DNA of 62,109 bases from Lentisphaeraceae bacterium. Its GTDB lineage: Bacteria > Verrucomicrobiota > Kiritimatiellia > RFP12 > UBA1067. Where the stretch lies: the NCBI GenBank assembly GCA_004551905.1, contig SFPL01000028.1:1-62109 (forward strand). The letters run 5' to 3'. Position 1 is the stretch's first letter. The number at the start of each line of letters is the position of its first letter. A model generated the notes under the pieces. That model saw only the letters and a program-made list of their open reading frames with translations. It ran no database searches and had not been told where the DNA came from. The position numbers and the translations under genes were made by a program. This document shows positions 153 through 39,654 of this stretch, in pieces.

Positions 153-563
153 TCACAAAAAAGGGGTAATCGTTAGTTTTTTAATTATCTTTACGTGTCC
201 ATTGACGTACTCATGCCTGAACGCGATGTTCTGGCAAGCGTTCCACGTCGCGCCGCCGACATCGAACGACTCCCCGCCCTTCGACGAAAGGTAGCCGTCC
301 ATAAACCATTTCACGAATGTGTCGCCGATGTCCTTCACGTCGTAGCCGCCCTTGCGGACGTAGGAGTCCATGATGCACATGGCCATCGATCCGTCGTCCG
401 TCCAGTAGCCTGCCGGAAGGTTGAACACCGGGCACTTCACCATCTCCGTGATTCACGGGTGGCTGTCCTTGCCGCTGAACTGTATGGGGCTTCCGAAGGC
501 GTCGCCCACGATCAGTCCCCACGCACCTTGATTACCGTTTGAAATTGGTCGTGTTGATGACAA
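153..563 (-). pseudogene. ADP-ribosylglycohydrolase (ARH/DraG family) remnant
   Basis: Minus-strand frame reads (TTG)SSTRPISNGNQGAWGLIVGDAFGSPIQFSGKDSHP-TGA-ITEMVKCPVFNLPAGYWTDDGSMAMC...FDVGGATWNA. The TGA at 453-455 is in frame. Family-like sequence stops near 215, although such enzymes are about 300 aa. Confidence 0.6.
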
Positions 564-905: not shown

Positions 906-3047
906 TTACGAACCGATCATGTCCGACGGCCAGTCAAGCTTCCATCTACCGCCCGACAAGGCGACGATCTCCTGCTCGGACTTGACGTTGCACAACTTCG
1001 CACCATACTTGCTGAAGTAGCTGACATTAAGATCAATGTCGGTTTTATGTACTGTCGGGTTTGTATACGCGACCTCAAAACTACGATCCTTTCTAATAGA
1101 AACGGAGGCAAGAAAATTCGTGCGGTACGAGGTTGTGCCGAATTGGAATGGCATGACAAAATGAGAATGCTTCTTCAGCCCGCTCTTAAGAATCGTGTCC
1201 TTCACGTTCTGCGGGGGAGCGATGAGATCCTCCTTCTCCTTCATGAAAGTGATCTCGACGGGCGTGTACTCAGTGTCCGATTCGTCACCCTTGCCAGTCT
1301 GGACGTCAAACGCGAGGGACGGCTTGTATGTGATCTCAACCGGCCACGACTGATGATCGAACACGAGCTTCACGGAATCGACTCCGGGCAGTTTCTTCCT
1401 ACGGCAGAAGAAAGTCAGCGTCACCACATCCGAACCAATACCCGCATCGCTCTTTCTGATCTTTCTCTCTTCGATGCCCTCGCTGATCGTCTCTACTGCA
1501 TTGGTGCCTTTGTACAGAATGACCTTGGATTCAACCTCGCCAAGGAGGAACCAGGACACTGGAATCTCGACAAGAAATTTATTGCTACGGAAGGTCGGCC
1601 GGACATACCGCATCTTGATCGCAAGCACGTCCTTTTTCGCTTCCTGCCACAAGTCCTTCACGCGGACACGACCAATGTAAAAGAGCTTCTCAAGCGAAGA
1701 CGCTGTCTGATTCGCGCAGATGTCAAACACGTTCTGACTCAAGCCTTCGCTTTTCTTTTCGGCAAGAATGTCGTTGTAGAGTGTGCGAATGCGAATGAGG
1801 TCGATGTCGGTAGGCAGGTCGTTCTTTCCGATTGACATCTCCTCTTTGGAATACTTGTTTCTGTACGAGAGAAGCTTCGCCTCAAAACAACCTTCAATGT
1901 ACGCATTCGATTGGTTTAAGACCTTCAGCGCGGCTTTAGGATCGTTCAAGACATGGTACAGGACATCCGCGCAGAAATAGGAATAGTCCGGATTGACGTT
2001 GTTGTAGTTAACATCGCATATCTTCTTGAGCCATTTGCGCATCTTGTCGTGATTGTCGCTATTCGTGGCGATCAAGGCGGTCACGCCAGCGATGGCCGTC
2101 TGTGCCACCATCGGATCGACCTTCAGAAGATCGCGGTGGACCTCGAAGAACTCATCCGCAGCCTCCAACGCAACGGAGTAGTCCTTGCATTGCACGGCAA
2201 ACGAGGCGAGGTAGTACCAATATGCCGCGAACCGCTGGAAATGAACGCGCATATCGTGCGTGTTGAGAAGCGTGTACACGCGCTCCGACTTGCCGATCTT
2301 GAGAGCATTAACGAGGGATTGAAGTTCGGCCGGAGTTACGATGTCCTCACGCTGTAGGTTTTTGTCCCTAACGAACGCGAACTCGGCATCGATCAAGGTC
2401 TTGTTCGCCTCGTGGACTTCCTTCTCCTTGCTTCTGTTGTAGCTGAACAGACGCTCCTTGTTGTTCGCCCGTAGCTCATCGAGCGTCTTATTGTAGTCCA
2501 TCACGGTTGCGAGGGGGCCTCCTATCAAGTCTCCGGCGAGAACAAGCAGGGCCTGAAAGCTGACCGTATAGGAGTCCCCCTTGCCGGATTGCTTCACAAT
2601 GACATTGCCAGCATCCTTGAGCGCAAGCGGAACAGATGCGACGAGCTTCAGCCACATATTCTTCTTTTCGCGGCGACGCCTGTCCTCCATTTCCTCTTGA
2701 TAGTACTTGTAGTCCTCGTCCGCCATCTTGAGTGCCTTCAAGGAGTCGAGCATCGACTGGATGAGCGTAAGCATCGCCTTATCGTTGTACGAAAACGCGG
2801 GGATGCGCGTCACGTCGATGCGGTCGATGGAAATCTTCTCGTATTCCTCCTGCACGGCAAGCACATTGTGATACGTGTTCATCACCGTGTAGGCGTAGTT
2901 CATCTGGTTGATGTACGCCACAGCATCGAGGGCCGACTCGCGATCTGCGTCTATCTTGGACTGACGCAAATTGCCCGAGACCTCGTCTTCACCGATTGCC
3001 GAGAGAAAAGCAAGCGACGCGAATGCTATTGCCGTCATGAATTTCAT
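906..3047 (-). CDS. secreted orphan protein, 713 aa
   Basis: Longest ORF in a visibly lower-GC stretch. N-terminus MKFMTAIAFASLAFLSAIG looks like a signal peptide. No motif I recognise. Overlapping opposite-strand ORFs are shorter and compositionally odd. Confidence 0.7.
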   Translation of the reverse strand: MKFMTAIAFASLAFLSAIGEDEVSGNLRQSKIDADRESALDAVAYINQMNYAYTVMNTYHNVLAVQEEYEKISIDRIDVTRIPAFSYNDKAMLTLIQSMLDSLKALKMADEDYKYYQEEMEDRRRREKKNMWLKLVASVPLALKDAGNVIVKQSGKGDSYTVSFQALLVLAGDLIGGPLATVMDYNKTLDELRANNKERLFSYNRSKEKEVHEANKTLIDAEFAFVRDKNLQREDIVTPAELQSLVNALKIGKSERVYTLLNTHDMRVHFQRFAAYWYYLASFAVQCKDYSVALEAADEFFEVHRDLLKVDPMVAQTAIAGVTALIATNSDNHDKMRKWLKKICDVNYNNVNPDYSYFCADVLYHVLNDPKAALKVLNQSNAYIEGCFEAKLLSYRNKYSKEEMSIGKNDLPTDIDLIRIRTLYNDILAEKKSEGLSQNVFDICANQTASSLEKLFYIGRVRVKDLWQEAKKDVLAIKMRYVRPTFRSNKFLVEIPVSWFLLGEVESKVILYKGTNAVETISEGIEERKIRKSDAGIGSDVVTLTFFCRRKKLPGVDSVKLVFDHQSWPVEITYKPSLAFDVQTGKGDESDTEYTPVEITFMKEKEDLIAPPQNVKDTILKSGLKKHSHFVMPFQFGTTSYRTNFLASVSIRKDRSFEVAYTNPTVHKTDIDLNVSYFSKYGAKLCNVKSEQEIVALSGGRWKLDWPSDMIGS

Positions 3048-3071
3048 GGTGATTACTCCATCATACGTTTC

Positions 3072-3707
3072 TTAAATCGAATTGAAAACCCTGTCAACCT
3101 CTTCGAGTTCCGGAACGACCTTTTTCCAGATCTCATTCTCGATGTACTCGTGTTTTACTCGCCACATAAATCTAATCACGCGGCGAAGCGTGGCGGACAG
3201 CCGCTCGAAGATCTGCTCGTTCTCGACCGTGACCTTGCATTTCTCGAACGCATCCTTCGCCGTGATGTACGCGGAATGCCAGTCCTCCATCTGGGCGTAA
3301 CATTGCGCCAGCATGACATAGGCGGACGCATGATCCGCCTTGATGTCGACGGCGCGGCGGAGATGACCGACCGCCTTGAGACAATCGCCCCGCTTGGCCA
3401 AAAGCGTCCCGAGGTTGCATTGCGCGTCGGGGGACATCGGATCGACCTCGACCGCCTTCTCGTAATAGCGGAGCGCGGCCTCGTCATCCTTCTTGTAGTT
3501 CGTGAAGATGTTTCCCAAGATGATGAGCGCGTTGACGTTCTTCGGGTCGAGCCGCAGGCTCTCTATGCAATCGTCAATCGCGCCGTCGAAGTCGCCGCCC
3601 ATCATCTTGGCCTGGGCGAGATCGCGCCATGCCTCGGCGATGTCGGGGTGTTCCTCGACCCGCTTCGCCATCGCGGCAAGCATCTCTCTGTACTGTTCTT
3701 CTGTCAT
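3072..3707 (-). CDS. tetratricopeptide-repeat protein, 211 aa
   Basis: Start moved to MTEEQY (ATG 3705-3707). TPR-like 34-aa periodicity (AEAWRDLAQAKMMGGDFDGAIDDCIESLRLDP; ALRYYEKAVEVDP; AVGHLRRAVDIKADH). Ends 24 nt upstream of 906-3047 on the same strand. Confidence 0.75.
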   Translation of the reverse strand: MTEEQYREMLAAMAKRVEEHPDIAEAWRDLAQAKMMGGDFDGAIDDCIESLRLDPKNVNALIILGNIFTNYKKDDEAALRYYEKAVEVDPMSPDAQCNLGTLLAKRGDCLKAVGHLRRAVDIKADHASAYVMLAQCYAQMEDWHSAYITAKDAFEKCKVTVENEQIFERLSATLRRVIRFMWRVKHEYIENEIWKKVVPELEEVDRVFNSI

Positions 3708-3811
3708 CGGTTTCCTTATACGGCATAAAAAGTCATTAAATAGTATATCAAATTTGCCGTTTTCCGATAGTGAACTTTCGCGAATCCGCAATTTTTGATA
3801 AAATATGCGGC

Positions 3812-4303
3812 ATGGTAGCGAAGGTGGTTTCTGGAGCGCAGACGGGCGTTGACCGTGGTGCGCTCGATGCGGCGATTGATGCGTCCTGCCCCTATGGCGG
3901 CTGGGTTCCGAAGGGTCGGCGCAGCGAGGACGGGTGTGTGCCCGCCCGCTACTCCGCCATGTCCGAAACCGCCTCCTCGAACTACCTCAAGCGCACAGAG
4001 CAGAACGTGGTCGACTCGACCGCCACCGTGATCCTCTGCCACGGTGCGCCCACCGGCGGGACGCTGCGCACCGTCGAGTTCTGCAGGAAGCACAGCCGAC
4101 CCTGCTGGATCGACGATCCCGATTCGCCCAACGAGACGGATCGCGGAATGGAGATCCGCTACTGGATTGAGGCGGAGTTCGGCGACGCGCCAATCGTGCT
4201 GAACTTCGCCGGCCCGAGGGAATCGAAATGCCCCGGCATACAGGAGTCGGCGCGTCGGTACGTCGCCCGCCTCCTCTCCGAGGAGCCACACGCCACCGTC
4301 TGA
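3812..4303 (+). CDS. stand-alone SLOG-fold protein (YpsA / putative molybdenum-carrier family), 163 aa
   Basis: MVAKVVSGAQTGVDRGALDAAIDASCPYGGWVPKGRRSEDG...LNFAGPRESKCPGI fits the SGGQTGVDR...GGWxPKGR...AGPRES signature of this family as I remember it. Start chosen at ATG 3812. Confidence 0.75.
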   Translation: MVAKVVSGAQTGVDRGALDAAIDASCPYGGWVPKGRRSEDGCVPARYSAMSETASSNYLKRTEQNVVDSTATVILCHGAPTGGTLRTVEFCRKHSRPCWIDDPDSPNETDRGMEIRYWIEAEFGDAPIVLNFAGPRESKCPGIQESARRYVARLLSEEPHATV

Positions 4304-4540
4304 CCGCCCAGGGCGGCGCAGGACGCGTTCCACGCCCCAGTGCGGGCGACGAGCCGCTTCCGCGGCGGAAGCCGCCACGGGGCGTTCCTGCGCGGCTGCG
4401 GAAGCCGTCGCGGCCATGTGCGGCGAACTTCCATCAGACGGACGGTTTTACTATACTTGATTCGTCCCGCTCGCGTGAAAGACCTGGGGATACATCCTCC
4501 GCAGAGAACTACCATTGCGCGGGCTGGACTCCGAACGCGG

Positions 4541-4939
4541 CTACGCAAGCAGCCGCGTCAGCGTGACGATGTTCTTCACGCCGTTCAGTTCGCAGAGCGC
4601 ACGGTTGACGAGGAACTCGAGCTGGTCGAAGTCCTCGCGCTCGGCGGAGTCGGCCATCGCGATGTGGTCGAGTTCCGCCAGCCGCCGCCACGCGCCGTAG
4701 GTGGTCGAGGCGATCCCCTCGACGAGGTTCCGAACCTCGTCGAAGTCCACGGCGAGTCCCTCTTCGGGTATGTGCTTCCGATAGAGTTCCCGCAGCCGGT
4801 CGCGGCGGCCCTTGCGCTTCTCCTCGTCGTCCCGCGCCCGCTTCGCCGCGTCCTCGGCCTGGCGGCGTACCTCGGCGGCGACGAGCTGGACCTTCTGCCG
4901 AGCCGAGAGGAAGTTCGATGGATCGTGGACCTTCCTCAT
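4541..4939 (-). CDS. hypothetical phage protein, 132 aa
   Basis: Start moved to MRKVHDPSNF (ATG 4937-4939). The upstream part of the 203-aa track ORF is Arg/Gly-rich junk. Charged coiled-coil-like centre. Lies downstream of promoter cassette A. Confidence 0.55.
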   Translation of the reverse strand: MRKVHDPSNFLSARQKVQLVAAEVRRQAEDAAKRARDDEEKRKGRRDRLRELYRKHIPEEGLAVDFDEVRNLVEGIASTTYGAWRRLAELDHIAMADSAEREDFDQLEFLVNRALCELNGVKNIVTLTRLLA

Positions 4940-5122
4940 GGCGCGACCCTCCCAGCCCCGCGCAGGGACGCGCACAGCCGCCCCGTGGCGCGTCCGCGCC
5001 GTGCGGACGGATAGTCGAACGCCCGAAGGCTCGGAACGCCTGCGGGCGCGTCCTTGCGCGTCCTGCGGGCATGGTTGAATCTCTCTTTCATCGGCATCTC
5101 CATGTTTGTTTCCATGCCCCAT

Positions 5123-5151
5123 ATAATGCCGTAAACCCGCGATGGAATCCA
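5123..5151 (-). promoter_or_regulatory. cassette A leftward promoter
   Basis: Minus strand TGGATT-N17-CATTAT, with TTACGG abutting the -10. Weak -35. Confidence 0.4.
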
Positions 5152-5177
5152 CTCGGAGATTTCCCGAAAACGACCGC

Positions 5178-5206
5178 TTGCTATTACTGCCGCCTTACGG
5201 CATAAT
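5178..5206 (+). promoter_or_regulatory. cassette A rightward promoter
   Basis: TTGCTA-N17-CATAAT, with TTACGG abutting the -10. Fires toward the 3' end of minus-strand gene 5377-5532. Confidence 0.45.
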
Positions 5207-5376
5207 AGGCGTGGTGCTCATTTGCCAAGGGGGCTGTTCGCAAAGACAAAAAGAGCGGACGGCCCTCGGTGGAAAAACGCCCGCGCCAAAGAAAGGTAGG
5301 CGCAAACGCAAAACACCTCGAGCCGCCCGCAGAGCGGAGGTCAGGTTATCCCCCGCCCCAAGAGGGTGTGCGGACT

Positions 5377-5532
5377 TCAGTCCAGCAGGATCGTCATCTT
5401 CTCGCCGATTGCCGCGAGGCGGCTGATCGTGAAGTCGAAGTCCGCGCCGTCCTCGTAGGCAGCGATTGCCTCACGCGCCTCGGCGCGGAGGGCCTTGAAC
5501 TCCGGGGTCTTTCTGATGATGTTCTTGTTCAT
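5377..5532 (-). CDS. small hypothetical protein, 51 aa (below ORF-track cutoff)
   Basis: Hand translation: MNKNIIRKTPEFKALRAEAREAIAAYEDGADFDFTISRLAAIGEKMTILLD. ATG at 5530-5532, TGA at 5377-5379. GC-rich third positions like neighbouring genes. Confidence 0.5.
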   Translation of the reverse strand: MNKNIIRKTPEFKALRAEAREAIAAYEDGADFDFTISRLAAIGEKMTILLD

Positions 5533-5608
5533 GGTCTGATCTCCTTTCGGATGCTGTCGTTGGTAATGATGCCATAATCGGTGCTGAAAAGCAACTGGGT
5601 ATTTTGGA

Positions 5609-5812
5609 CTATTTCCGCATCTCCCATCTTGCGATTTCGTCGCCGTTCTTGCGGGACACGACGATCTCGTCTCCGTACCCCCGCACCTCGCCGCCGTGTT
5701 CGTCGGCCACCTCTCTCGCGTCCGCCAGCATCGCCGCCCGCGCCGATTCCTCGTTGGCGTACTCGTAGATCGTGCAACTGAATCCCGATGCGCTGAATCT
5801 AACCTTGACCAT
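5609..5812 (-). CDS. small hypothetical protein, 67 aa
   Basis: ATG 5810-5812. MVKVRFSASGFSCTIYEYANEESARAAM... Fits the same-strand string of small genes separated by GC hairpins. Confidence 0.55.
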   Translation of the reverse strand: MVKVRFSASGFSCTIYEYANEESARAAMLADAREVADEHGGEVRGYGDEIVVSRKNGDEIARWEMRK

Positions 5813-5840
5813 TTTTGTTTCCCCTTTCCGCTTGCGGCGG

Positions 5841-5869
5841 GAGGGGCGAGAACGCCCCGTCTCGCCCTC
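5841..5869. repeat. intergenic GC hairpin
   Basis: GAGGGGCGAG...CTCGCCCTC between 5876-6085 and 5609-5812. Confidence 0.5.
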
Positions 5870-5875
5870 GGTGCT

Positions 5876-6085
5876 TCACAGCCCCACTCCCTTGAAGTTC
5901 CAGTCGCCGCGCCTGACGGCGGCGACCTCGGCGGCGTGTGCCGCCCCGTAGTCGGGACGCTTGCGCTCCGCCTCCGCGCACTCCATGCAGATCGTGTCGG
6001 TATTGAAGAAGCTCATCGTCCGCCCGCCCGCCAGCGGCTTGCCGCATCGGTCGCAGACCGTCTTCGTGAAAAACTCGTCCTTCAT
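5876..6085 (-). CDS. small zinc-ribbon protein, 69 aa
   Basis: Start moved to MKDEFFTKTVCDRCGKPL...TICMECAE (two CxxC pairs). ATG 6083-6085, preceded by a GGAAAGA-type RBS. Confidence 0.6.
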   Translation of the reverse strand: MKDEFFTKTVCDRCGKPLAGGRTMSFFNTDTICMECAEAERKRPDYGAAHAAEVAAVRRGDWNFKGVGL

Positions 6086-6110
6086 CTTTCCGTTCCTTTC
6101 TCGTTGTGCC

Positions 6111-6137
6111 GCCCGCACCGACCCTCTCGGTGCGGGC
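6111..6137. repeat. intergenic GC hairpin
   Basis: GCCCGCACCG-ACCCTCT-CGGTGCGGGC. Confidence 0.6.
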
Positions 6138-6152
6138 TGTCTTTCCATTTTT

Positions 6153-6413
6153 TCAGTTGCGCACCGCGAACCCGTAGGAGGCGGGGCCGAGGTTGACGAT
6201 CACGATTCCATGCGCGAAAAGCGCGCTCTCCACCTTGTGGTACTGTTCCCTCGCTATCACCGCCCGAGCGATAAGCCCGCCCTGCGGATTCGGCGCGATG
6301 TCCATGATCGCGATCCCCGCGCCCTTAAACTCGCTTTCGATGATCGGCGTGATCCGTTCGATCTGCTCCGCCGTCGGCAATGCTATTCCGTCTGCAATTC
6401 TCATTTCGGTCAT
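6153..6413 (-). CDS. small hypothetical protein, 86 aa
   Basis: MTEMRIADGIALPTAEQIERITPIIESEFKGAGIAIMDIAP... ATG 6411-6413 after GAAAGGA. An alternative ATG lies at 6404. Confidence 0.6.
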   Translation of the reverse strand: MTEMRIADGIALPTAEQIERITPIIESEFKGAGIAIMDIAPNPQGGLIARAVIAREQYHKVESALFAHGIVIVNLGPASYGFAVRN

Positions 6414-6432
6414 TCCTTTCTCGTTCGGTTTT

Positions 6433-6459
6433 GCCCCGTCCCCCTCGCGGGGGCGGGGC
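6433..6459. repeat. intergenic GC hairpin (GCCCCG...CGGGGC family)
   Basis: GCCCCGTCCCCC-TCGC-GGGGGCGGGGC. Confidence 0.6.
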
Positions 6460-6467
6460 GTTTCGTT

Positions 6468-6704
6468 TTACGCCTCCTCGGTCGCGACCTTGGCTTGTTG
6501 CAGGGCGCGGATCTGGAAGGCGAGGTGCCGAAGCTCGAGGGCCGCCGCGTCGAGGTCGGCGGGCCTCCAAATCACCGCCTTGTTGTCGGCGTTGAGCTTG
6601 TTGATCAGCGACCCCGCCCGCGCTCCCTTGCGGGCGAGCTGCTCCTTGATCGCCTCGCGGAGCTTCGCCTGCCCCGCCTTGACCTTGACCACTTTGATCT
6701 GCAT
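6468..6704 (-). CDS. small conserved phage protein, 78 aa (paralogue of 10299-10544)
   Basis: Start moved to MQIKVVKVKAGQAKLREAIKEQLARKGARAG. Aligns along its whole length with the 81-aa product of 10299-10544. First gene behind promoter cassette B. Confidence 0.65.
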   Translation of the reverse strand: MQIKVVKVKAGQAKLREAIKEQLARKGARAGSLINKLNADNKAVIWRPADLDAAALELRHLAFQIRALQQAKVATEEA

Positions 6705-6761
6705 TTTCGTTTCCTTTCTTTTTGTGCCTCGCGGAGGCCTGCCCCCCGCTTTTCGAGTCAC

Positions 6762-6790
6762 AGTATGCCGTAATCCGTGGGTAATAGCAA
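6762..6790 (-). promoter_or_regulatory. cassette B leftward promoter
   Basis: Minus strand TTGCTA-N17-CATACT. About 60 nt upstream of ATG 6704. Confidence 0.55.
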
Positions 6791-6845
6791 CGGGGTATTT
6801 TTTTATTTTTAATAATTTTTATTTGCGAATTATCAATTATCCTGC

Positions 6846-6874
6846 TTGCTATGATTCGCCGCTTACGGTATCAT
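6846..6874 (+). promoter_or_regulatory. cassette B rightward promoter
   Basis: TTGCTA-N17-TATCAT (TTACGG abutting the -10). Convergent with 6974-7002. Confidence 0.45.
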
Positions 6875-6985
6875 AGGCGTGGTGCCTACTGCCCGAGTGG
6901 GCGATTGCCGTGCGGTCGATTTTGAAGCCGCCCCACGGGGGCCGTGAACCGAGGCCCTATCCCATCGTCCGACAGTATGCCGTAA
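6863..6985. repeat. 123-bp element bounded by TTACGGTATC...TATGCCGTAA inverted termini
   Basis: Reverse complement of 11648-11771 by hand alignment (most positions identical). Confidence 0.8.
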
Positions 6986-7002
6986 TAAAGCCAGCATTGC
7001 AA
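6974..7002 (-). promoter_or_regulatory. cassette B distal leftward promoter
   Basis: Minus strand TTGCAA-N17-CATACT. Faces 6846-6874 across about 100 bp. Confidence 0.45.
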
Positions 7003-7072
7003 CGGCCTATTTCATAAATCGTCGGCGCGGAATCCGCTGGACTTCGCGCCGAGTTTATGATTGGTTTCGCAC

Positions 7073-7615
7073 TCACTTCTTCGCCGCACCGCCACCGAGG
7101 TTGGGCAACGGCGACCACCGCTCGTCACGCTTCGCCGTTGGCTTGCGCGGAGGCGTGAGCCAGCTGTAGCCGCCGCCGACTTGAAAGCCGAACGGCGGAT
7201 CGTCCTTGCGGCGGAACTCGTTTTTCACGCCGTGCCAATGCGCCCCCGCCGAGCAGATGAGGCGGTAGGCCCTCGGGTACTCCTTGCCCTCGCGCTCCTT
7301 CCTCGCCGCCTCCGTCATCACGTAAGTGAAGGCGTAGACCTTGTGCTTCGCGTCAAGCCATGCGTTGACCTGGACGCATCCGTACACGGACGGGTAGCCC
7401 TCGTAGGCGTCGAGGCGGTGAACCTCCGAGTCGGTGACGAGGTAGAGGACGCCCTCGACCTGCCCGCCCCGCGCCCGCTCGATGTCGGCGTAGAGCCGTT
7501 CGCGCAAACGCCACCCCTTGATTGTCGCCTTGCCGACGAGGCGGGCCTGCGGAATCCTCTCGCGGATTCGGTCGGGATTCATGTTCGATCCGTAGGCGAA
7601 GTAAAAGCTGTTCAT
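7073..7615 (-). CDS. gamma-glutamylcyclotransferase (GGCT/AIG2-like) family protein, 180 aa
   Basis: Start moved to MNSFYFAYGSNMNPDRIRERIP...EGVLYLVTDSEVHRLDAYEGYP. The YGSNxN opening and xLDxxEG motif are the AIG2/GGCT hallmarks. Has a Pro/Gly-rich C-terminal extension. Confidence 0.75.
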   Translation of the reverse strand: MNSFYFAYGSNMNPDRIRERIPQARLVGKATIKGWRLRERLYADIERARGGQVEGVLYLVTDSEVHRLDAYEGYPSVYGCVQVNAWLDAKHKVYAFTYVMTEAARKEREGKEYPRAYRLICSAGAHWHGVKNEFRRKDDPPFGFQVGGGYSWLTPPRKPTAKRDERWSPLPNLGGGAAKK

Positions 7616-7641
7616 CGTCGCGTTCCTTTCCCTTGGGGGTC

Positions 7642-7666
7642 GCCCCGCCCCTCGCGGGGGCGGGGC
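7642..7666. repeat. intergenic GC hairpin (same family)
   Basis: GCCCCGCCCC-TCGCG-GGGGCGGGGC between the amidoligase and GGCT genes. Confidence 0.65.
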
Positions 7667-7673
7667 TTCCGAT

Positions 7674-8561
7674 TCAGTCGTGCCGTCCGTCCTTCCAAGC
7701 CGCCGAGCCGGGCATCCGCTTGAGGAGGTGCTGGCGCGGTGCCTTGAACATCGCCCCGTTCCAACCGAGGCGAAGGAGGAAAACGCGGAGGTCGTACTTC
7801 GCGCTTGCCTCGCTGTAGGGGCGGGGGTTCTTCGCGCTTGCCGCCTTCGCCGCCATCGCCTTGTGGACAATCGTGAGGGCGAGGAGGACGTTGGCGCGAA
7901 TTTCGCCCGCGTGGGTCGTCGCCTCGAAGAGGCGGAACTCGACCGTGTGCTTGCCGCCGTTCCAAAGGTTGTGGAGGTTGAGGGTGCGGTAGCGGGCCGA
8001 GCAGTAATGGTTGTAGCGGTCGCGCACCCCGTGGTAGTAGGCGTCCGCCAGGTTCTCCATCGTCGGGGTCGGGAGCTTCAGCATCTTCTCGACGAACTCG
8101 CGGTCGGTCTTGCGCGTGTACCAACCGAGGCGGTTCGCCGCCGTGCCGCACCCGCGCACGATCAGCTCCTCCTGCTTGTAGAAAATCTTGACGAGGTTCT
8201 GGATTTGCCTCGGGGTCATCCGCGCCGCGCCCACGTGGATGTGGAGGCCCGCACCGCCGCCCGTCCTTGCGCCCGCCCTCTTGAGGGCGCGGACAACCTC
8301 CTGCAGGGTGGCGATGTCCCCGATCTTGAGGATCGGGCTCACCGTCTCGCTCCCGCCCGAAACCGAGCCGTCGGTCTCGCAGTTCCACCTGCGCCCGTCG
8401 GGCATCTCGACCACCCAGTTGGAAAGGTGGCGGCCTTCGTAAAAGGCGCGTCCGCCCGTCACCTCCGCGACCACCTTCGCCGCCTTTGCGGTGCTGATCT
8501 TGTCGTACTCGAGCTCGACCCCGAAGGTCATCTCGCTGAGTTCCGCTTCCGTTATCGTCAT
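7674..8561 (-). CDS. amidoligase (Pfam Amidoligase_2-type, glutamine-synthetase-like fold), 295 aa
   Basis: FGVELEY...NCETDGSV...SPIL...GLHIHVG...ARYRTLNLHNL...HTVEFRLFEAT is the motif order I associate with the phage/ICE amidoligase family. First gene behind cassette C. Confidence 0.8.
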   Translation of the reverse strand: MTITEAELSEMTFGVELEYDKISTAKAAKVVAEVTGGRAFYEGRHLSNWVVEMPDGRRWNCETDGSVSGGSETVSPILKIGDIATLQEVVRALKRAGARTGGGAGLHIHVGAARMTPRQIQNLVKIFYKQEELIVRGCGTAANRLGWYTRKTDREFVEKMLKLPTPTMENLADAYYHGVRDRYNHYCSARYRTLNLHNLWNGGKHTVEFRLFEATTHAGEIRANVLLALTIVHKAMAAKAASAKNPRPYSEASAKYDLRVFLLRLGWNGAMFKAPRQHLLKRMPGSAAWKDGRHD

Positions 8562-8620
8562 CTTCTTGTTCCTTTCTTTTGTTTTTCTCGCGGAGGCCTG
8601 TCCCCCGCTTTTCGAGTCAC

Positions 8621-8649
8621 AGTATGCCGTAAGCTGCGGGTAATAGCAA
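8621..8649 (-). promoter_or_regulatory. cassette C leftward promoter (amidoligase operon)
   Basis: Minus strand TTGCTA-N17-CATACT. 60 nt upstream of ATG 8561. Confidence 0.55.
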
Positions 8650-8705
8650 CGGGGTATTTTGATATATTTTCATTATTTTTAATGCGGAATTATCACTTAT
8701 AGCCC

Positions 8706-8735
8706 TTGCAATCCGTTGAACTATTACGGCATAAT
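8706..8735 (+). promoter_or_regulatory. cassette C rightward promoter
   Basis: TTGCAA-N18-CATAAT. Fires toward the terminator at 8789-8841. Confidence 0.4.
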
Positions 8736-8788
8736 ACGGACGCTGGGATAGGGCCTCAGTTCGTTGCCCCCGAGGGGTGCGGAGAACG

Positions 8789-8841
8789 TAAAAACCGAAG
8801 AGCGGCATCAGCCCCGTTTCGTCGGGGTGATGTCGCTCTTC
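8789..8841 (-). terminator. intrinsic terminator after GGCT gene 8874-9335
   Basis: Minus strand GAAGAGCGACATCACCCCG-ACGAAA-CGGGGCTGATGCCGCTCTTC, then GGTTTTTAC. Confidence 0.65.
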
Positions 8842-8873
8842 GCCCATTAGGCGTTCGCGCTACGCCTTGTCGA

Positions 8874-9335
8874 TCAGCGGCGGTTGCGCCAGTCGCCGCC
8901 CTCGATCACCTTCGCGTCCTTCGGGAGCGAGTTCATGATGTAGACCCATGCGCGGATGCGTCCGCCATCGGGCGTAAACGCCTCGATCTCCTCGCGGCGG
9001 TAGAGTCGCGGGTAGCCCTCGAGCCGATCCATCGATGCGAAGCCCTCATCATCGACGGTCAGCAGCTCGCCGACGATCTTCGTCTCTCCCGCCTTGACGA
9101 AGGCGGGGAACCCGAAGCCCGTGTCGTAGATCGTGCCGTGCGTCCATGCGGGGTGTCGCCTCGCGCCTTTCGCCCAGTGGGCGTTGCCCTCGCCGGTGAG
9201 GAGCGTCCCGTAGACGAACACCTTGTGTTCGGCGCGGGGCGAGGTCGGCAGTCCGAGTTCGCGCTCCGCCCGCTCCCTCGCGAGGGGCGGGAGGTGCTTG
9301 ATCTCCCTCTTGAGCGTTTCGATGTCCTTGGTCAT
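8874..9335 (-). CDS. second gamma-glutamylcyclotransferase-like (AIG2/GGACT-type) protein, 153 aa
   Basis: KVFVYGTLLTGEGNAHW...GELLTVDDEGFASMDRLEGYPRLYRRE carries the YGTL opening and LDxxEGYP motif of the AIG2 branch. Followed by a terminator at 8789-8841. Confidence 0.75.
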   Translation of the reverse strand: MTKDIETLKREIKHLPPLARERAERELGLPTSPRAEHKVFVYGTLLTGEGNAHWAKGARRHPAWTHGTIYDTGFGFPAFVKAGETKIVGELLTVDDEGFASMDRLEGYPRLYRREEIEAFTPDGGRIRAWVYIMNSLPKDAKVIEGGDWRNRR

Positions 9336-9377
9336 CTTCTGTTCCTTTCTCGGCCGCTTCGGCGACCGTTCATTTTA

Positions 9378-9965
9378 TCATTTCCCCTCGGCGCGTCCCG
9401 CCGAAAGCCCCTGGTAGAATTCGCAGTTCGCCTTCTCATCCCACGAGCATTCCTCGTCGCAGGGCTGTTGGGAGAGCGGGCAGAAGTGCTTCGGCGGATC
9501 GTCCTCAACCTCGCCGACGCAGTCGATCCTCGTCTCGTCCGCCTCCTCGAATTCGGACACCTTGAGTTCGCCCGCGCCGAACTTTGCGCCGACGATCTCC
9601 TCGGCCTGCCGCTCGTCCTTCGCCTCGACCGTGAAGGTTCCGTGCATCCGCACCGAGACCGTCACCTCGTACTTCTTCGTCGCATCCATTTCCGTTTTTC
9701 TTTCCGTTCGTCTTGCCGCGACTTCGTTTCGGGGTGGTGGTGTATTCGCCTCCAATCGCACAAGGTTCACGTAGCGTTTCGACACTTGGATGAGGTGTCT
9801 GTGGTCGCCGTAGGAAATGAACCTCTCGTACTCCTCGATCTTGTCCTCGCGTCCGCTGTCCTTGAGGGCTTGGATCGTCATTTCGTAAATGTGCCTCACG
9901 TCGCAATTGTGGGCCTTGGGATTGTAGGTCACCGTCTTGTCGGTGAACGGTTTTCTTTTCGCCAT
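9378..9965 (-). CDS. hypothetical protein, 195 aa (start uncertain)
   Basis: Start set at MAKRKPFTDK (ATG 9963-9965, after AAAGAAAGGAATG). An internal MDATKKYEVTV with its own RBS-like GGAAAGAAAAACGGAA could be a second start. Cys-rich acidic C-terminus. Confidence 0.5.
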   Translation of the reverse strand: MAKRKPFTDKTVTYNPKAHNCDVRHIYEMTIQALKDSGREDKIEEYERFISYGDHRHLIQVSKRYVNLVRLEANTPPPRNEVAARRTERKTEMDATKKYEVTVSVRMHGTFTVEAKDERQAEEIVGAKFGAGELKVSEFEEADETRIDCVGEVEDDPPKHFCPLSQQPCDEECSWDEKANCEFYQGLSAGRAEGK

Positions 9966-9991
9966 CTTCGCATTCCTTTCTTTCGGGTGTT

Positions 9992-10020
9992 GCCCCGCCC
10001 CCGTTTCGGGGAGGCGGGGC
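9992..10020. repeat. intergenic GC hairpin (same family)
   Basis: GCCCCGCCCC...GAGGCGGGGC. Confidence 0.55.
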
Positions 10021-10030
10021 GGTGGGGTTT

Positions 10031-10237
10031 TTACTCGCAGTCGAAGTACCTCGCGCAGGTCGCGAGGAGGTTGTCGTAGTTCCCGCTCGTGCATTCCTTC
10101 GTGAACTGCTCGATGAGGTCGGCGCGTCCGTTCCGGCGGAGGAGTTGCCGCGCCCGCGCCATGATCGAGAATGCGTTTCCGTCTTCGCCGACGAGTTTCA
10201 GCTTGAGGTTGGTGATCGGTTCTTGTTGCGTTGCCAT
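10031..10237 (-). CDS. small phage protein, 68 aa
   Basis: MATQQEPITNLKLKLVGEDGNAFSIMARARQLLRRNGRADLIEQF. The GNAFxIM...LRRxG pattern recurs in small phage proteins in my memory, but I cannot name a family. Confidence 0.6.
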   Translation of the reverse strand: MATQQEPITNLKLKLVGEDGNAFSIMARARQLLRRNGRADLIEQFTKECTSGNYDNLLATCARYFDCE

Positions 10238-10263
10238 TTTCGTTTTCCTTTCTTTCGGGTGTT

Positions 10264-10290
10264 GCCCGCCCCCCGCGTGGAGGGGCGGGC
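10264..10290. repeat. intergenic GC hairpin (same family)
   Basis: GCCCGCCCC-CCGCGTGGA-GGGGCGGGC. Confidence 0.6.
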
Positions 10291-10298
10291 GGTTTTCG

Positions 10299-10544
10299 TC
10301 AGGCCTCTTCGGTTGCCTTCTTGGCGTTCTTCAAGGCGCGGATCTGGAAGGCAAGGTAGCGAAGCTCAAGCGCAATCGCGTCAAGCTCGTTGGGAATCCA
10401 AACCACCGCCTTCTGGTCGGCGGTCAGCTTGTTGATCAGGATTCCCGCCCGCGCTCCCTTTTTCGCGAGGGCGTCCTTGATCGCCTCGTGGAGCTTCATC
10501 TGCCCCGCCTTGACCCGCACCATCTTCATCTTCCGTTGTTGCAT
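10299..10544 (-). CDS. small conserved phage protein, 81 aa (paralogue of 6468-6704)
   Basis: MQQRKMKMVRVKAGQMKLHEAIKDALAKKGARAG... The ATG at 10542-10544 sits at the same position in the repeated leader as the amidoligase ATG in cassette C. Confidence 0.65.
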   Translation of the reverse strand: MQQRKMKMVRVKAGQMKLHEAIKDALAKKGARAGILINKLTADQKAVVWIPNELDAIALELRYLAFQIRALKNAKKATEEA

Positions 10545-10602
10545 CTTCTTGACCTTTCTTTTGTTTTTCTCGCGGAGGCCTGTCCCCCGCTTTTCGAGTC
10601 AC

Positions 10603-10631
10603 AGTATGCCGTAAGCTGCGGGTAATAGCAA
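10603..10631 (-). promoter_or_regulatory. cassette D leftward promoter
   Basis: Identical to 8621-8649 (inside the 187-bp direct repeat). Confidence 0.55.
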
Positions 10632-10687
10632 CGGGGTATTTTGATATATTTTCATTATTTTTAATACGGAATTATCACTTATAGCCC

Positions 10688-10717
10688 TTGCAATCCGTTG
10701 AACTATTACGGCATAAT
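10688..10717 (+). promoter_or_regulatory. cassette D rightward promoter
   Basis: Identical to 8706-8735. Confidence 0.4.
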
Positions 10718-10770
10718 ACGGACGCTGGGATAGGGCCTCCGTTGGCGGCCCCACGGGGGCGCGGAAGAAC

Positions 10771-10798
10771 GGAAAACGCCTCGGCCGAAACCGAGGCG
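10771..10798 (-). terminator. intrinsic terminator after 10823-11095
   Basis: Minus strand CGCCTCGG-TTTCGG-CCGAGGCG, then TTTTCC. Confidence 0.6.
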
Positions 10799-10822
10799 CG
10801 AAGGCGGACGCTGTCCGTCAAG

Positions 10823-11095
10823 TCATGCGTCTTGGATTCCCTCAAGCCGCTCGACGAGCGCGTCGAAGATCGGCTTGCCGTCGGCGATCACCTTGTTCAC
10901 CGCTTCGATGCTTTCGCGCAGGCCCGTCGGTGCGTCGGGCGGCAGATCGCCCAGGAGCAGGTCGCCGTTCCAGTTCGCGAAGGTGTCCATCGCCGTGGCC
11001 ATCTCCGTGCTTTGCAAAACCCCGTCGCAGAATTCGTGCAGCTCCTTGCTGACGCTCTTCGCCTTGCCGTCCTTGCAGTTCGTTTCCATTTTCAT
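10823..11095 (-). CDS. hypothetical protein, 90 aa
   Basis: MKMETNCKDGKAKSVSKELHEFCDGVLQS... Same-strand ORF bracketed by a GC hairpin (11115-11138) and a terminator (10771-10798). Confidence 0.55.
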   Translation of the reverse strand: MKMETNCKDGKAKSVSKELHEFCDGVLQSTEMATAMDTFANWNGDLLLGDLPPDAPTGLRESIEAVNKVIADGKPIFDALVERLEGIQDA

Positions 11096-11114
11096 TTCCT
11101 TTCGTTTGAGGTTT

Positions 11115-11138
11115 GCCCGCCCCCTCGCGGAGGCGGGC
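11115..11138. repeat. intergenic GC hairpin (same family)
   Basis: GCCCGCC-CCCTCGCGGA-GGCGGGC. Confidence 0.55.
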
Positions 11139-11147
11139 GGTGAATCG

Positions 11148-11507
11148 TCAGCCCATCTTCTCCTCTTCGCGGCGGCGGTTGTTCGCCACGATATCGTCGA
11201 ACCAGCGTCCGCCGACTTGGAAGCGCGGAATCACAATCGCGTCCACGTTCTCGATGTCGGAAAGCTTGACGCTCACGATGTGGAGGTCGTCCCGATAGGC
11301 GTTGTCGCCCGTCAGCCCGTAGGCGAGGTTCATCGTCGCGCCCGTGATGACGTAGGCGACCTCCTGCTTCATCGGCGTGTAGCCCTTGATCCAGTCGAAG
11401 AGCTGCGTGAGCGATTCTTCGTCGGTCGTGAGGCCCTCCCAGGTGAGTGCCGATTCCTTTTCCAGCGCGTCGAGCTGCGCCTTGGTTTGCACCGTGATCT
11501 TCTTCAT
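11148..11507 (-). CDS. hypothetical protein, 119 aa
   Basis: Start moved to MKKITVQTKAQLDALEKESALTWEG (ATG 11505-11507). First gene behind cassette E. The upstream part of the 217-aa track ORF runs through the AT-rich promoter region. Confidence 0.6.
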   Translation of the reverse strand: MKKITVQTKAQLDALEKESALTWEGLTTDEESLTQLFDWIKGYTPMKQEVAYVITGATMNLAYGLTGDNAYRDDLHIVSVKLSDIENVDAIVIPRFQVGGRWFDDIVANNRRREEEKMG

Positions 11508-11566
11508 CTTCCTGTCCTTTCTTTTGAGTTTTTCCGCGAAGGCCTGCCCCTCGCTTTTCGAGACAC

Positions 11567-11595
11567 ATGATGCCGTAATTCCGTGGTAATAGCAA
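11567..11595 (-). promoter_or_regulatory. cassette E leftward promoter
   Basis: Minus strand TTGCTA-N17-CATCAT. 60 nt upstream of ATG 11507. Confidence 0.55.
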
Positions 11596-11647
11596 CGGCC
11601 TATTTGAAAATAAATTATTATTTTTCTACTGGATTTATGAACTATGA

Positions 11648-11771
11648 TTACGGCATACTGTCGGACGATGGGATAGGGACCCGATTCGCGGCCCCCGTGG
11701 GGCGGCTTCAAAGAATCGACCGCGAGGCAATCGCCCCTCGGGCTGTAGGCACCACGCCTATTATGCCGTAA
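11648..11771. repeat. 124-bp element, inverted copy
   Basis: TTACGGCATACTGTCGGACGATGGGATAGGG...GGCACCACGCCTATTATGCCGTAA. Opposite orientation relative to the flanking genes compared with 6863-6985. Confidence 0.8.
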
Positions 11772-11788
11772 ACGGCGAATCATATCCA
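11760..11788 (-). promoter_or_regulatory. cassette E distal leftward promoter
   Basis: Minus strand TGGATA-N17-CATAAT. Faces a TTACGGCATACT -10 at 11648-11659 (+). Confidence 0.4.
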
Positions 11789-11849
11789 GCGGAATAATCA
11801 TGAAAAAAGCGGGCGCACCGATCCCGCAGACCGATGCGCCCGCCGTGGG

Positions 11850-12335
11850 TCACTTGACCGTGCAGTCGGTGCATTGCCCCGTCGAGCATTGCCCGTCCGC
11901 GCACTCGCCGCCCTTGGGGTTGCAGTTCCCGTCGGGGCAGTCGCTGTCCGTACAACCGCCGTCGGGACACTCGCCGTCCTTCTTCTCGGCGGGCGGAGGC
12001 GGAACGATCTCCTTGCCCGTGGAGAGAGTGTCGCTCGTCCCGTCGAGCTTGTCGACGAGGCGGTCGAACACCTCCTGCGAGATCACGTGGAGCTGCGCGG
12101 CCCGCTCCGGCGTGAGCTTGCCGTCGGCGACCATGCGCTCGACGTAGTTGCTGTAGGCGGCGCGACCGCCCACCTCGTAGGCGAAGCGCATCACGTCCGC
12201 CACCTCCGAGCGGATCTCCGCCCGCTTCTCCGGAGTGACTGCCGTGGTGCAGCCCGTGCCGAGACCGGCGCACAGCGCAACCATCGTGACCAACGCGGCG
12301 ACGAGCCGCACCTTCATCTTCTTCTGGGAATCCAT
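11850..12335 (-). CDS. lipoprotein with Cys-rich C-terminal tail, 161 aa
   Basis: KVRLVAALVTMVALCAGLGTGC resembles a signal peptide plus lipobox. The C-terminus has repeated CxDGxC units (CPDGGCTDSDCPDGNCNPKGGECADGQCSTGQCTDC). Confidence 0.65.
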   Translation of the reverse strand: MDSQKKMKVRLVAALVTMVALCAGLGTGCTTAVTPEKRAEIRSEVADVMRFAYEVGGRAAYSNYVERMVADGKLTPERAAQLHVISQEVFDRLVDKLDGTSDTLSTGKEIVPPPPAEKKDGECPDGGCTDSDCPDGNCNPKGGECADGQCSTGQCTDCTVK

Positions 12336-12380
12336 AGCTGGATCGTCCTTTCGCTTTTGTGTTTTCCAAGACCGCGACGG

Positions 12381-12608
12381 TCACCTGCCGACGCTGATCA
12401 AGCTGAGTGATTTGGAGTCGCTCCAGTCGGGCGATCCCGACTTGATGATCTCCGTCTTGAGCGCACCGACCGTCATGCCGTCCTCGCGCTTGAGGGCGGT
12501 CTTGTCGGTCGGCTCGTAGTAGTGCCTCTCGGTGATGCACTGGCTGGCGCAGCCCCCGATCATGTCGAGGGCCGCGCCGAGCGCGAGGACGGCGAGTGTC
12601 CGCCTCAC
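12381..12608 (-). CDS. small lipoprotein, 75 aa (GTG start)
   Basis: GTG at 12606-12608 overlaps the stop of 12605-13081 (GTGA). (V)RRTLAVLALGAALDMIGGCAS looks like a signal peptide plus lipobox Cys. Confidence 0.5.
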   Translation of the reverse strand: MRRTLAVLALGAALDMIGGCASQCITERHYYEPTDKTALKREDGMTVGALKTEIIKSGSPDWSDSKSLSLISVGR

Positions 12609-36812: not shown

Positions 36813-36847
36813 GGATGTTTATTGCCAGCCCACGCGAATCTTCAGTT
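36813..36847 (+). repeat. GGATGTTTATTGCC-N11-ATCTTCAGTT motif, copy 1
   Basis: Copy 2 lies 104 bp downstream. Copy 1 lacks the TATAAT found after copies 2 and 3. Confidence 0.7.
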
Positions 36848-36916: not shown

Positions 36917-36984
36917 GGATGTTTATTGCCACATCGAAAAAATCTTCAGTTTTCTCGAGAAACTTTCTCGCAGATTCGTATAAT
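36917..36984 (+). promoter_or_regulatory. same motif, copy 2, with TTCTCGAGAA palindrome and TATAAT (36979-36984)
   Basis: GGATGTTTATTGCC-N11-ATCTTCAGTT...TTCTCGAGAA...TCGTATAATTT. Drives toward the mini-ORF at 37025. Confidence 0.5.
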
Positions 36985-39625: not shown

Positions 39626-39654
39626 TTGATAACCTCCGTCGTTTACGGCATCAT
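39626..39654 (+). promoter_or_regulatory. phage consensus promoter for the HARE-HTH gene
   Basis: TTGATA-N17-CATCAT, with TTACGG abutting the -10. ATG of 39691-40053 lies 37 nt downstream. Confidence 0.55.

Follow-up and report, generated by a model that had tools for sequence, protein, structure and literature searches.

The window analysed in this work, a stretch of 62,109 nucleotides, is a whole contig from a siphovirus-like phage, binned with a metagenome-assembled genome (MAG) of Kiritimatiellia type. It carries an intergenic element at 6836-6986 (copy A), of which a second copy lies at 11647-11798 in the opposite orientation (copy B). As judged from its sequence, this element is made of two promoter-plus-leader modules joined head to head, because each half also exists alone; we call the promoter end at 6846-6874 P_L and that at 6974-7002 P_R. 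Both modules appear to consist of a sigma-70-type promoter of the extended -10 class of the host, followed by a conserved leader of its own. The cassette is neither a single gene nor a mobile unit, and its regular place is that of copy A, directly after GGACT1, a gene of an amidoligase-GGACT operon. We lean, without great certainty, towards viewing it as a composite regulatory cassette, whose convergent promoters would insulate or tune the neighbouring accessory operons. The anatomy and the origin of the copies are the parts of this interpretation in which we are quite confident, whereas the mechanism is tentative and may well have to be revised.

The repeat search found the two copies as two pairs of inverted arms (6921-6986 with 11647-11712, 66 nt, 94%; 6836-6900 with 11734-11798, 65 nt, 86%). 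In a BLAST comparison with the whole MAG, the segment 6836-6986 matched 11647-11798 on the opposite strand with 89% identity (E 1.2e-50), partial copies were found at 8723-8777, 10705-10761 and 5176-5217, and all matches were confined to the window contig. The first-pass annotation of this DNA, made from the letters alone, had described an element of 124 bp, present in both orientations, with inward-pointing promoter words at its ends and a GC hairpin inside. The inverted copies proved to be as described, and so did the terminal words, which are TTACGGTATCAT at 6863-6874 (+) and TTACGGCATACT at 6974-6985 (-), with counterparts at 11648-11659 (+) and 11760-11771 (-). The inverted unit is real but larger than was thought: the two copies share 151 bp, 27 bp more on one side, because the -35 and the spacer of one promoter belong to it. 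The hairpin is present too, but the fold is no stronger than that of shuffled sequence. What had to be abandoned is the notion of a discrete 124-bp unit working in either orientation, since we find instead two separate promoter-leader modules, each of which occurs alone, and 15 of the 16 full elements known to us share one orientation. A coding reading, with small open reading frames (ORFs) running across the element, was rejected as well, because the frame differs between the copies, the discriminator being 2 nt long in some of them and 3 nt in others.

The order of the parts is best followed in the direction of the genes. At copy A it is GGACT1, a hairpin, P_R pointing forward, P_L pointing backward, an A/T-rich spacer, the gene promoter P2 and the next operon; at copy B it is a Cys-rich gene, its terminator, P_L pointing forward, P_R pointing backward, an A/T-rich spacer, P2 and the next operon. 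P_L(A), placed back to back with P2(A), is directed to the right and antisense to the genes; its leader begins with AGGCGTGGTGCC. The predicted starts of P_L and P_R, placed from the positions of the -10 words, are about 87 bp apart in this long form of the element. Each of the small operons is preceded on the minus strand by P2, which has the form aaataccccgTTGCTAtta-N8-TTACGGCATaCT and is followed by a 5' untranslated region with a hairpin and a ribosome-binding site. The sister cassettes of P2(A) lie at 8555-8679, 10537-10661 and 11501-11625 (family D1, four copies). Two of the partial copies consist of P_R alone: copy C is in antisense orientation and heads into the terminator of GGACT2, and the surroundings of copy D (10553-10765) are 96% identical to those of copy C (8571-8783; family D3). 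Copy E, which is P_L alone, stands back to back with a promoter word at 5123-5134 (-). The A/T-rich region shared by P_L and P2 looks like an UP element, and the equivalent back-to-back spacers contain 75% (C), 77% (D) and 91% (B) A+T. Terminator-like hairpins precede the cassettes B (11844-11808), C (8815-8799) and D (10799-10776). The region has a second repeat family, D12/D16 (7622-7651, 9972-10001, 10244-10273 and 11095-11124), which on the gene strand consists of a GC hairpin, AAAGAAAGGAA and a start codon, and is an intercistronic cassette of hairpin plus ribosome-binding site.

We infer promoter function for P_L and P_R from several features of their sequence. Allowing one mismatch, the window contains the word TTACGGYATMMT 14 times as against 0.44 times expected, a number reached in none of 100 shuffles, and 13 of the 14 words fall within 5123-11771. 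In a simple scan with the promoter consensus, P_L was recognised at A, B and E, whereas P_R was recognised at C and D, with seven sites in all versus a shuffle mean of 1.6. A recognisable -35 is present in 39 of 42 non-redundant P_R copies that have a -10, at a distance of 17 nt in 13 copies, 18 nt in 25 and 16 nt in one. Among 72 related P_R copies position 2 of the -10 is A in 90% and position 6 is T in 92%, and the columns of the promoter spacer are only 35-55% conserved. The other contigs of the MAG contain the pattern TTGNNN, 11-13 nt, T[AG][TC]GG[TC]A[TA]NNT at 39 sites, versus one in the reversed-sequence control, and the extended -10 alone at 152 sites, versus five in the control. Some of these host sites stand before genes for the glycolytic enzyme aldolase and the ribosomal proteins S16, L31 and L34, identified by eye and not by a family search. 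By their sequence, the terminal words of the element match this promoter type of the host. The host consensus is sharp, TTG(A/C)NN, about 12 nt, T(A/G)TGGTATAAT (for example in contigs C86, C97, C104 and C117 of G000), and the phage version differs from it systematically, having TACGGCAT in place of TATGGTAT. The sole promoter word outside 5-12 kb, at 39644-39654 (+), precedes a plus-strand HARE-HTH gene (39691-40053) and adjoins the terminase genes.

The first-pass annotation had proposed to look for the element in other genomes. From all sources together we collected P_R modules that have a promoter, 82 of them non-redundant. In IMG/VR, searching for 15 fixed bases of this leader returned 23 loci, of which four, in three contigs, have promoter context; the remaining ones are chance matches. 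Of the three IMG/VR relatives so identified, G003 has the full element (81% identity), while the other two, estimated to be 91% and 100% complete, have a solitary P_R only. A pattern specific for P_L found only G003 in IMG/VR, and the exact P_L word plus leader had no match there. A stricter pattern of 18 bases gave 65 loci in metagenomes and 53 in genome contigs. The true matches among the latter come from contigs titled Kiritimatiellae or Kiritimatiellia, in some cases Lentisphaerae, Verrucomicrobiota or unnamed gut bins. The window, the IMG/VR relatives (L034-L036) and the metagenome loci make up 71 matches, 55 of them non-redundant; 42 of these possess a -10 whose second position is A and whose sixth is T, two of which look like chance, and 13 have no promoter. 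DNA similar to the element was not found in the deposited phage collection.

At least 16 of the 82 modules are part of full, face-to-face elements with 59-99 bp between the -10 words (96-99 bp in the long form, 59-66 bp in the short forms found in relatives). The number is a minimum because one locus counted as solitary, L147, has, by eye, a P_L with a variant word. In 15 of the 16 a GGACT-family ORF lies at most 500 nt upstream and has the same direction as P_R, which is the arrangement of copy A; the sole exception is copy B of the window. Fourteen of the full elements have a separate P2, which follows P_R at a distance of 153-201 bp downstream. In the two others, the 68-bp P2 match of L131 overlaps its own P_L word and copy B has none. 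The face-to-face arrangement persists at sequence identities of 47-62% and in the short forms, and in the phage G004:C10 it was retained with an unchanged leader, with the promoters all shifted to TACGCCATAAT. The other 66 modules are solitary, and 53 stand back to back with P2, with 82, 94 or 103-105 bp between the -10 words. Of the solitary modules, 29 point into the 3' end of a Cys-rich gene and nine into a GGACT-family gene (in eight cases GGACT2 is the best match), four follow GGACT1 in sense, and 24 have no neighbour recognised by our gene test. The cassettes of the window belong to a family of shuffled promoter cassettes that occupy the accessory-gene region behind the tail genes in siphovirus-like phages of gut Kiritimatiellia. 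The relative G004:C10, whose large terminase is 83% identical, lies inside a 159.6-kb contig, and three tyrosine-recombinase genes in a row (G004:C10 52311-54779, L157 about 2300-4800) are found just before its promoter-cassette region. These observations hint that some members of the phage family are integrated or carry a three-recombinase mobile element.

Copy B is best explained as a lineage-specific ectopic copy, or gene conversion, from an A-like element. The closest relative found, G005:C45, has an orthologue of copy A with 91% identity. Where the window has copy B, this relative carries no full element but just a solitary P_R, which points backward and stands behind the Cys-rich gene; we therefore regard copy B as specific to the lineage of the window. 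The alignment of the two phages runs to 11696 and resumes at 11803, so that the P_L half of copy B corresponds to 106 bp in the window versus 14 bp in G005:C45. Recombination of copy A with an antisense P_R already present behind the Cys-rich gene probably took place in the P_R sequence common to both, and its conversion tract would have brought the remaining sequence of copy A into the B site. Such ectopic conversion would account for the presence of the element in both orientations, with no need for a mobile element or an invertase.

Signs of recombination are also found elsewhere among the cassettes. From 24 listed public runs, three RNA-library runs and one DNA run were compared with the window over 4800-12600 in the form of assembled contigs. 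A joint of 6724 to 11530, by which the stretch from one P2 cassette to another is lost, was seen in one RNA-library run and in the DNA run. Joints between 7002 and 8680 and between 7010 and 11647 connect opposite strands, the latter in a single contig about 93% identical to the window. Position 9946 is joined to 10231 and to 10248 at the D12/D16 cassettes, and homology breaks at 10234 and 11126. In a comparison with four related phages, too, intergenic cassettes are the places where homology ends. The repeated cassettes could thus serve as patches of homology at which related phages swap, delete or invert gene modules. The 7010-11647 joint is what an inversion between A and B would be expected to produce, yet it may also reflect a different gene order, as it comes from one contig of another strain.

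The most conserved part of the family is the P_R leader, which is nearly invariant: GGACGATGGGATAGGGACTCGATTCGCG. Since part of it was fixed by the search pattern, conservation is best judged from the columns that were left free: in the 72 copies, -1 is conserved in 100%, +20 to +27 (GATTCGCG) in 78-99% and +30 to +32 in 94-96%. The sequence that follows the leader differs between loci. We looked for a conserved RNA fold, as the first-pass annotation had proposed, and did not find one. Six folds, for both strands of A, of B and of a relative, gave z-scores of -0.34 to +1.05 relative to shuffled sequences. An alignment of ten full elements had a covariation term of -0.05 and compensatory change in two of 27 pairs, and the first 58 nt of 40 P_R modules had a consensus energy of -1.3 kcal/mol, a covariation term of +0.05 and no compensatory pair. 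Rfam returned nothing at the gathering score and, at E up to 10, only matches of chance level (TCV_Pr, 6A, SNORD35, naRNA4); no transfer RNA or transfer-messenger RNA was found in the window. By these Rfam, folding and covariation results, the element is not a structured non-coding RNA.

How might the cassette work? The antisense or interference reading of the facing promoters, already put forward in the first-pass annotation, is plausible on what we see in the DNA. Transcription from P_L and from the solitary P_R modules would run backwards into the last part of the upstream operon, where the polymerases would meet those that have passed its terminator, and would yield RNA complementary to the 3' end of that operon. 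In the full element P_R would in addition fire forward into P_L, so that head-on polymerases, mutual interference and complementary RNAs would be expected. Read-through into the next operon might in this way be blocked and the 3' end of the upstream message damped, and a solitary P_R could act likewise behind the Cys-rich gene and GGACT2. Collision and antisense effects are proposed here by analogy with the convergent helD promoters discussed below.

It must be noted that several observations weigh against this interpretation. The third promoter, P2, lies between the antisense promoter and the downstream gene, therefore the face-to-face pair cannot be the sole control of that gene. The terminator scan found no canonical terminator after the P_R leader; the RNA from P_L(A) would meet the hairpin behind GGACT1 with its U-rich tail. 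Interference also leaves unaccounted for the near-invariance of 28-31 nt after the P_R start, and the pattern used for collecting P_R fixes 18 leader positions, by which diverged leaders, such as the G003 copy with its one-base deletion, are under-sampled. The face-to-face form must be dispensable, since two of the three IMG/VR relatives carry the solitary P_R only. The RNA-library data, being contigs only, give no starts, ends or strand and no proof of transcription, and gaps in their coverage are meaningless.

Other explanations take the conserved leader as their starting point. The P_R transcripts could be tagged antisense RNAs with a common antidote, the P_L transcript, which includes a perfect complement to this tag and would base-pair with them in trans as a sponge; alternatively the tag could be a 5' seed for host mRNA. 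This would fit the combination of a nearly invariant leader with variable sequence behind it, the pattern of a constant 5' end and an unconstrained 3' part, as well as the four tags in one genome, two of which P_L transcripts would cross in antisense, and the prediction, from the weak consensus fold, that the tag is unpaired. A target complementary to the tag did not emerge, however: complementary 11-mers number 12 in the MAG outside the phage versus about 20 expected, and the best tag duplex in the phage outside the copies (-32.3 kcal/mol) falls inside the span of values given by ten shuffled seeds (-29.6 to -34.8). When two mismatches are allowed, the tag or its complement occurs in only four of 41 related genomes (G000 and 40 relatives) and in none of the 15 high-quality ones, and the relative estimated to be 100% complete has the tag but no P_L-bearing element. 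We consider tagged RNAs unlikely, though they deserve to be kept in mind. Their extension to a phage "tag and anti-tag" RNA network, in which the antisense RNA of each accessory gene starts with the same tag of about 30 nt and the P_L transcript is a common antidote, sponge or source of double-stranded RNA, seems to us rather improbable; our literature searches returned no phage description of tag/anti-tag control of moron genes. The leaders might instead be conserved as DNA, either as an operator or roadblock for a phage regulator, placed a short way behind the start, or as a G-cluster (GG..GGG..GGG on the non-template strand) favouring R-loops and recombination. Conservation of primary sequence without covariation, the coincidence of the cassettes with rearrangement joints and the confinement of the motif to phages speak for a DNA site, but the motif is neither palindromic nor repeated in helical phase, no candidate DNA-binding protein was identified, and joints are found also at repeats without the tag (P2, 6724 to 11530; the ribosome-binding-site cassettes near 9946 to 10231). 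We give this possibility little weight.

A further group of explanations denies the face-to-face arrangement a regulatory function or gives the element another nature. It could be a by-product of cassette shuffling, tolerated since the operons keep their own P2. Copy B, a one-off among 16 full elements that arose by ectopic copying, agrees with this, as do the two of three IMG/VR relatives without a full element and the fact that P2 makes the pair dispensable for expression; yet the A-type arrangement is kept after a GGACT-family gene in 15 non-redundant loci, at 47-62% identity and with varied length, which argues for maintenance by selection, and a functionless arrangement appears improbable to us. 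The first-pass annotation had also mentioned the footprint of a site-specific inversion, and one relative contig does show an inversion-type junction. In the form of an invertible switch, the copies would be the inverted repeats, 4.66 kb apart, of a recombinase-flipped segment 6987-11646, and the opposite-strand joint of 7010 and 11647, from an RNA-library run of the 93%-identical relative, would be its trace. However, tyrosine- and serine-type recombinases (PF00589, PF00239) have matches elsewhere in the MAG but none on the contig of the window, C114, and family scans of the genes neighbouring the element revealed no recombinase either, which makes a site-specific invertase switch unlikely; moreover, in the closest relative the 16-kb contig carrying the A orthologue lacks a second full copy, and the joint was seen in one contig of a different strain, possibly with another gene order. 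A switch of this kind is very improbable. Equally hard to sustain, if not more so, is a non-autonomous mobile element resembling a miniature inverted-repeat transposable element, whose terminal repeats would bear promoters only incidentally: the ends are indeed imperfect inverted repeats, from -35 to about +10, and the element is found in different gene neighbourhoods, but copy B differs from the G005 sequence by a replacement with its boundary inside a pre-existing P_R and without target duplication, both halves exist independently, and the genome holds two full copies only. Finally, a promoter-driven short hairpin RNA in a phage could mimic the repeat of a clustered regularly interspaced short palindromic repeat (CRISPR) array and act as an RNA anti-CRISPR, the GC hairpin with its tail presumably resembling some CRISPR repeat types. 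We found neither a CRISPR array (a k-mer scan gave only a protein-coding tandem repeat on C35) nor Cas1 in the 78% complete MAG, and no Rfam CRISPR-DR match even at E up to 10, and the hairpin is the variable part of the module, hence this idea can practically be set aside.

It is useful to compare the convergent-promoter cassettes with systems described previously. The first-pass annotation knew of no described phage element of this form, but similar systems do exist. In the parts of Arbiol et al. 2010 (PMC2839356) on which we rely, the PeSL cassettes of T4-type phages comprise a sigma-70-like promoter, an A/T-rich upstream region and a stem-loop, lie in variable regions and take part in modular shuffling. 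Here too, repeated intergenic cassettes combine a promoter of host type, an A/T-rich upstream region, a GC stem-loop, a ribosome-binding site and a start codon; by its sequence, the promoter with its A/T-rich upstream region qualifies as a strong sigma-70-like one. The cassettes likewise stand before small accessory genes in a variable region, with 13 promoter words within 5123-11771 and four copies of P2, and recombination between copies accounts for the insertions, deletions and replacements observed among relatives. PeSL cassettes of T4-type phages are reportedly also the subject of Comeau et al. 2014 (PMC4122927). The differences are that PeSLs belong to T4-type myoviruses, whereas the present phage is siphovirus-like and has hosts of Kiritimatiellia type, and that many of its cassettes are bidirectional, having a second, backward promoter with a near-invariant leader. 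Face-to-face pairing is not a feature of PeSLs in the description available to us (PMC2839356). Because of the tape-measure protein, the fused head protease and the siphovirus-like gene order, we regard the cassettes as analogues of PeSLs and not as members of that class.

Convergent promoters also have precedents. The promoters pR and pL of coliphage 186 are said to be arranged face to face with a spacing of 62 bp. At the helD locus of Bacillus subtilis, according to the portion of the report that we used (PMC12802891), an antisense promoter, Panti-helD, which is stronger than PhelD and lies 39 bp from the sense start, represses by collision. Common to both systems and the present element are two sigma-70-type promoters converging over a short distance (59-99 bp between the -10 words here), of which one would be dominant, in our case presumably P_L because of its A/T-rich upstream region, and the short antisense transcript predicted to run towards the terminator of the upstream gene. 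In contrast to the 39 bp reported for helD, the starts are predicted to be about 87 bp apart. A difference that again weakens our interpretation is that, as far as the cited account goes, the sense promoter of helD is the sole promoter of the gene, whereas here the third promoter P2 follows downstream. Unlike in phage 186, no lysis-lysogeny genes flank the pair.

The OOP RNA of phage lambda is one short, terminated antisense RNA with a single target, the 3' end of cII. Just as with OOP, a promoter directly downstream of a gene is aimed into its 3' end, P_R at C, D and B and P_L at A and E, but here the same module stands behind several unrelated genes, has no evident terminator, and has a conserved 5' tag outside the target-complementary region. 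Described bidirectional bacterial promoters overlap via the symmetry of the -10 element, at least by the abstracts of the two reports that we cite (bioRxiv 10.1101/2020.01.31.928960, PMC12825309). The pairing of P2 with a backward promoter at a fixed distance is reminiscent of these, whereas in our case there are two complete, separate promoters, with 82-105 bp between the -10 words and an A/T-rich spacer. The finding is best filed as a variant of phage gene-shuffling promoter cassettes combined with convergent-promoter control, and does not represent an element of a new class. In the literature our searches brought up the analogues only and nothing on these phages, and a search on bacteriophage promoters with the word stem Kiritimatiell found no paper on the subject by title and abstract.

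Almost nothing is known about gene control in phages of Kiritimatiellia and of their relatives in the Planctomycetes-Verrucomicrobia-Chlamydiae group, and the present analysis supplies a usable promoter consensus for host and phage. It extends PeSL-like cassette shuffling to phages outside the T4 type and offers a concrete explanation of the inverted repeat, ectopic conversion via a shared regulatory module. It also reveals a widespread, backward-pointing promoter module, found behind several unrelated genes in many uncultured phages. If interference is true, the cassette would add a phage case to the dual-promoter logic that was recently demonstrated for helD; if it is false, what is left is ordinary, though neat, mosaicism of regulatory cassettes. 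The most interesting residue is the invariant P_R leader, in the phages of a poorly studied phylum.

Table 1. Features of the promoter cassettes and of the neighbouring genes in the window
Feature	Position	Strand	Description
Copy A, full element	6836..6986	+	P_L promoter, P_L leader, GC hairpin, reverse P_R leader, reverse P_R -10 word
P_L(A) promoter	6846..6874	+	predicted; TTGCTA, 17-nt spacer, TATCAT; 9/12 consensus
P_R(A) promoter	6974..7002	-	predicted; TTGCAA (6997-7002), 17-nt spacer, CATACT (6974-6979); same direction as genes
P_R leader "tag" GGACGATGGGATAGGGCCTCGGTTCACG	6943..6970	-	directly after P_R(A) -10; GTC precedes, GC hairpin follows
GC hairpin GCCGCCCCACGGGGGCCG	6927..6944		without T-run on either side
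Hairpin behind GGACT1 gene	7020..7050		weakly U-rich tails on both strands; below terminator-scan threshold
Copy B, full element	11647..11798	-	reverse complement of A; P_R antisense partner of P2(B), P_L along genes
P_R(B) promoter	11630..11659	+	predicted; TGGATT, 18-nt spacer, CATACT; tag at 11663-11690
P_L(B) promoter	11760..11788	-	predicted; TGGATA, 17-nt spacer, CATAAT
P_L half of copy B	11697..11802		106 bp in window, 14 bp in G005:C45
Intrinsic terminator of Cys-rich lipoprotein-like gene	11808..11844	-	17-pair stem, then TTTTTT
Copy C, P_R alone	8706..8765	+	TTGCAA, 18-nt spacer, CATAAT, tag GGACGCTGGGATAGGGCC...
Copy D, P_R alone	10688..10747	+	antisense to gene 10823-11095
Copy E, P_L alone	5178..5230	+	TTGCTA, 17-nt spacer, CATAAT, then AGGCGTGGTGCTC...
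P2(A) gene-promoter cassette	6696..6820	-	aaataccccgTTGCTAttacccacggaTTACGGCATACT, hairpin in 5' untranslated region, ribosome-binding site
A/T-rich spacer common to P2(A) and P_L(A)	6803..6845		81% A+T vs 38% for window
Amidoligase	7674-8561	-	family scan
GGACT1 (GGACT-family, cyclotransferase-like)	7073-7615	-	family scan; stop at 7073
GGACT2 (GGACT-family, cyclotransferase-like)	8874-9335	-	family scan
Cys-rich gene, lipoprotein-like signal peptide	11850-12335	-	translation read by eye

The window is the entire contig C114 of a 121-contig, 2.0-Mb assembly, the completeness of which was given above. Its phage genes encode a tape-measure protein, a fused head protease and major head protein, a portal and a large terminase, as well as a primase-polymerase, a helicase and a Sak4-like protein. 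According to an ORF filter based on GC3 (the G+C content of third codon positions), the minus strand bears nearly all genes, from about 57 kb down to 0.9 kb. The short operons lie at 12.6 to 5.3 kb, downstream of the tail genes (Table 1). Most genes of these small accessory operons have no family assignment. Two of the unassigned small genes, 6468-6761 and 10299-10544, are paralogues without a Pfam family (75% DNA identity between 6427-6700 and 10258-10531, family D2), each directly behind a P2 cassette. Outside the operons, a circularly permuted YpsA SLOG protein is encoded at 3770-4303 (+) and a fragment-sized ADP-ribosylglycohydrolase ORF lies at 153-443 (-); together with the amidoligase and GGACT1/2, these are of kinds often tied to nucleotide or peptide modification.

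Two further repeats are found outside the accessory region. A near-perfect palindrome at 57175-57231 (repeat I14; 27-nt arms, 96%, 3-nt loop) sits at the switch from the minus-strand replication genes to plus-strand genes, and could be a terminator, an operator or an origin. Family D14 consists of four copies of ATGTTTATTGCC...(A/T)TCTTCAG, at 36815-36845, 36919-36949, 43023-43053 and 51540-51570, which may represent another class of regulatory site.

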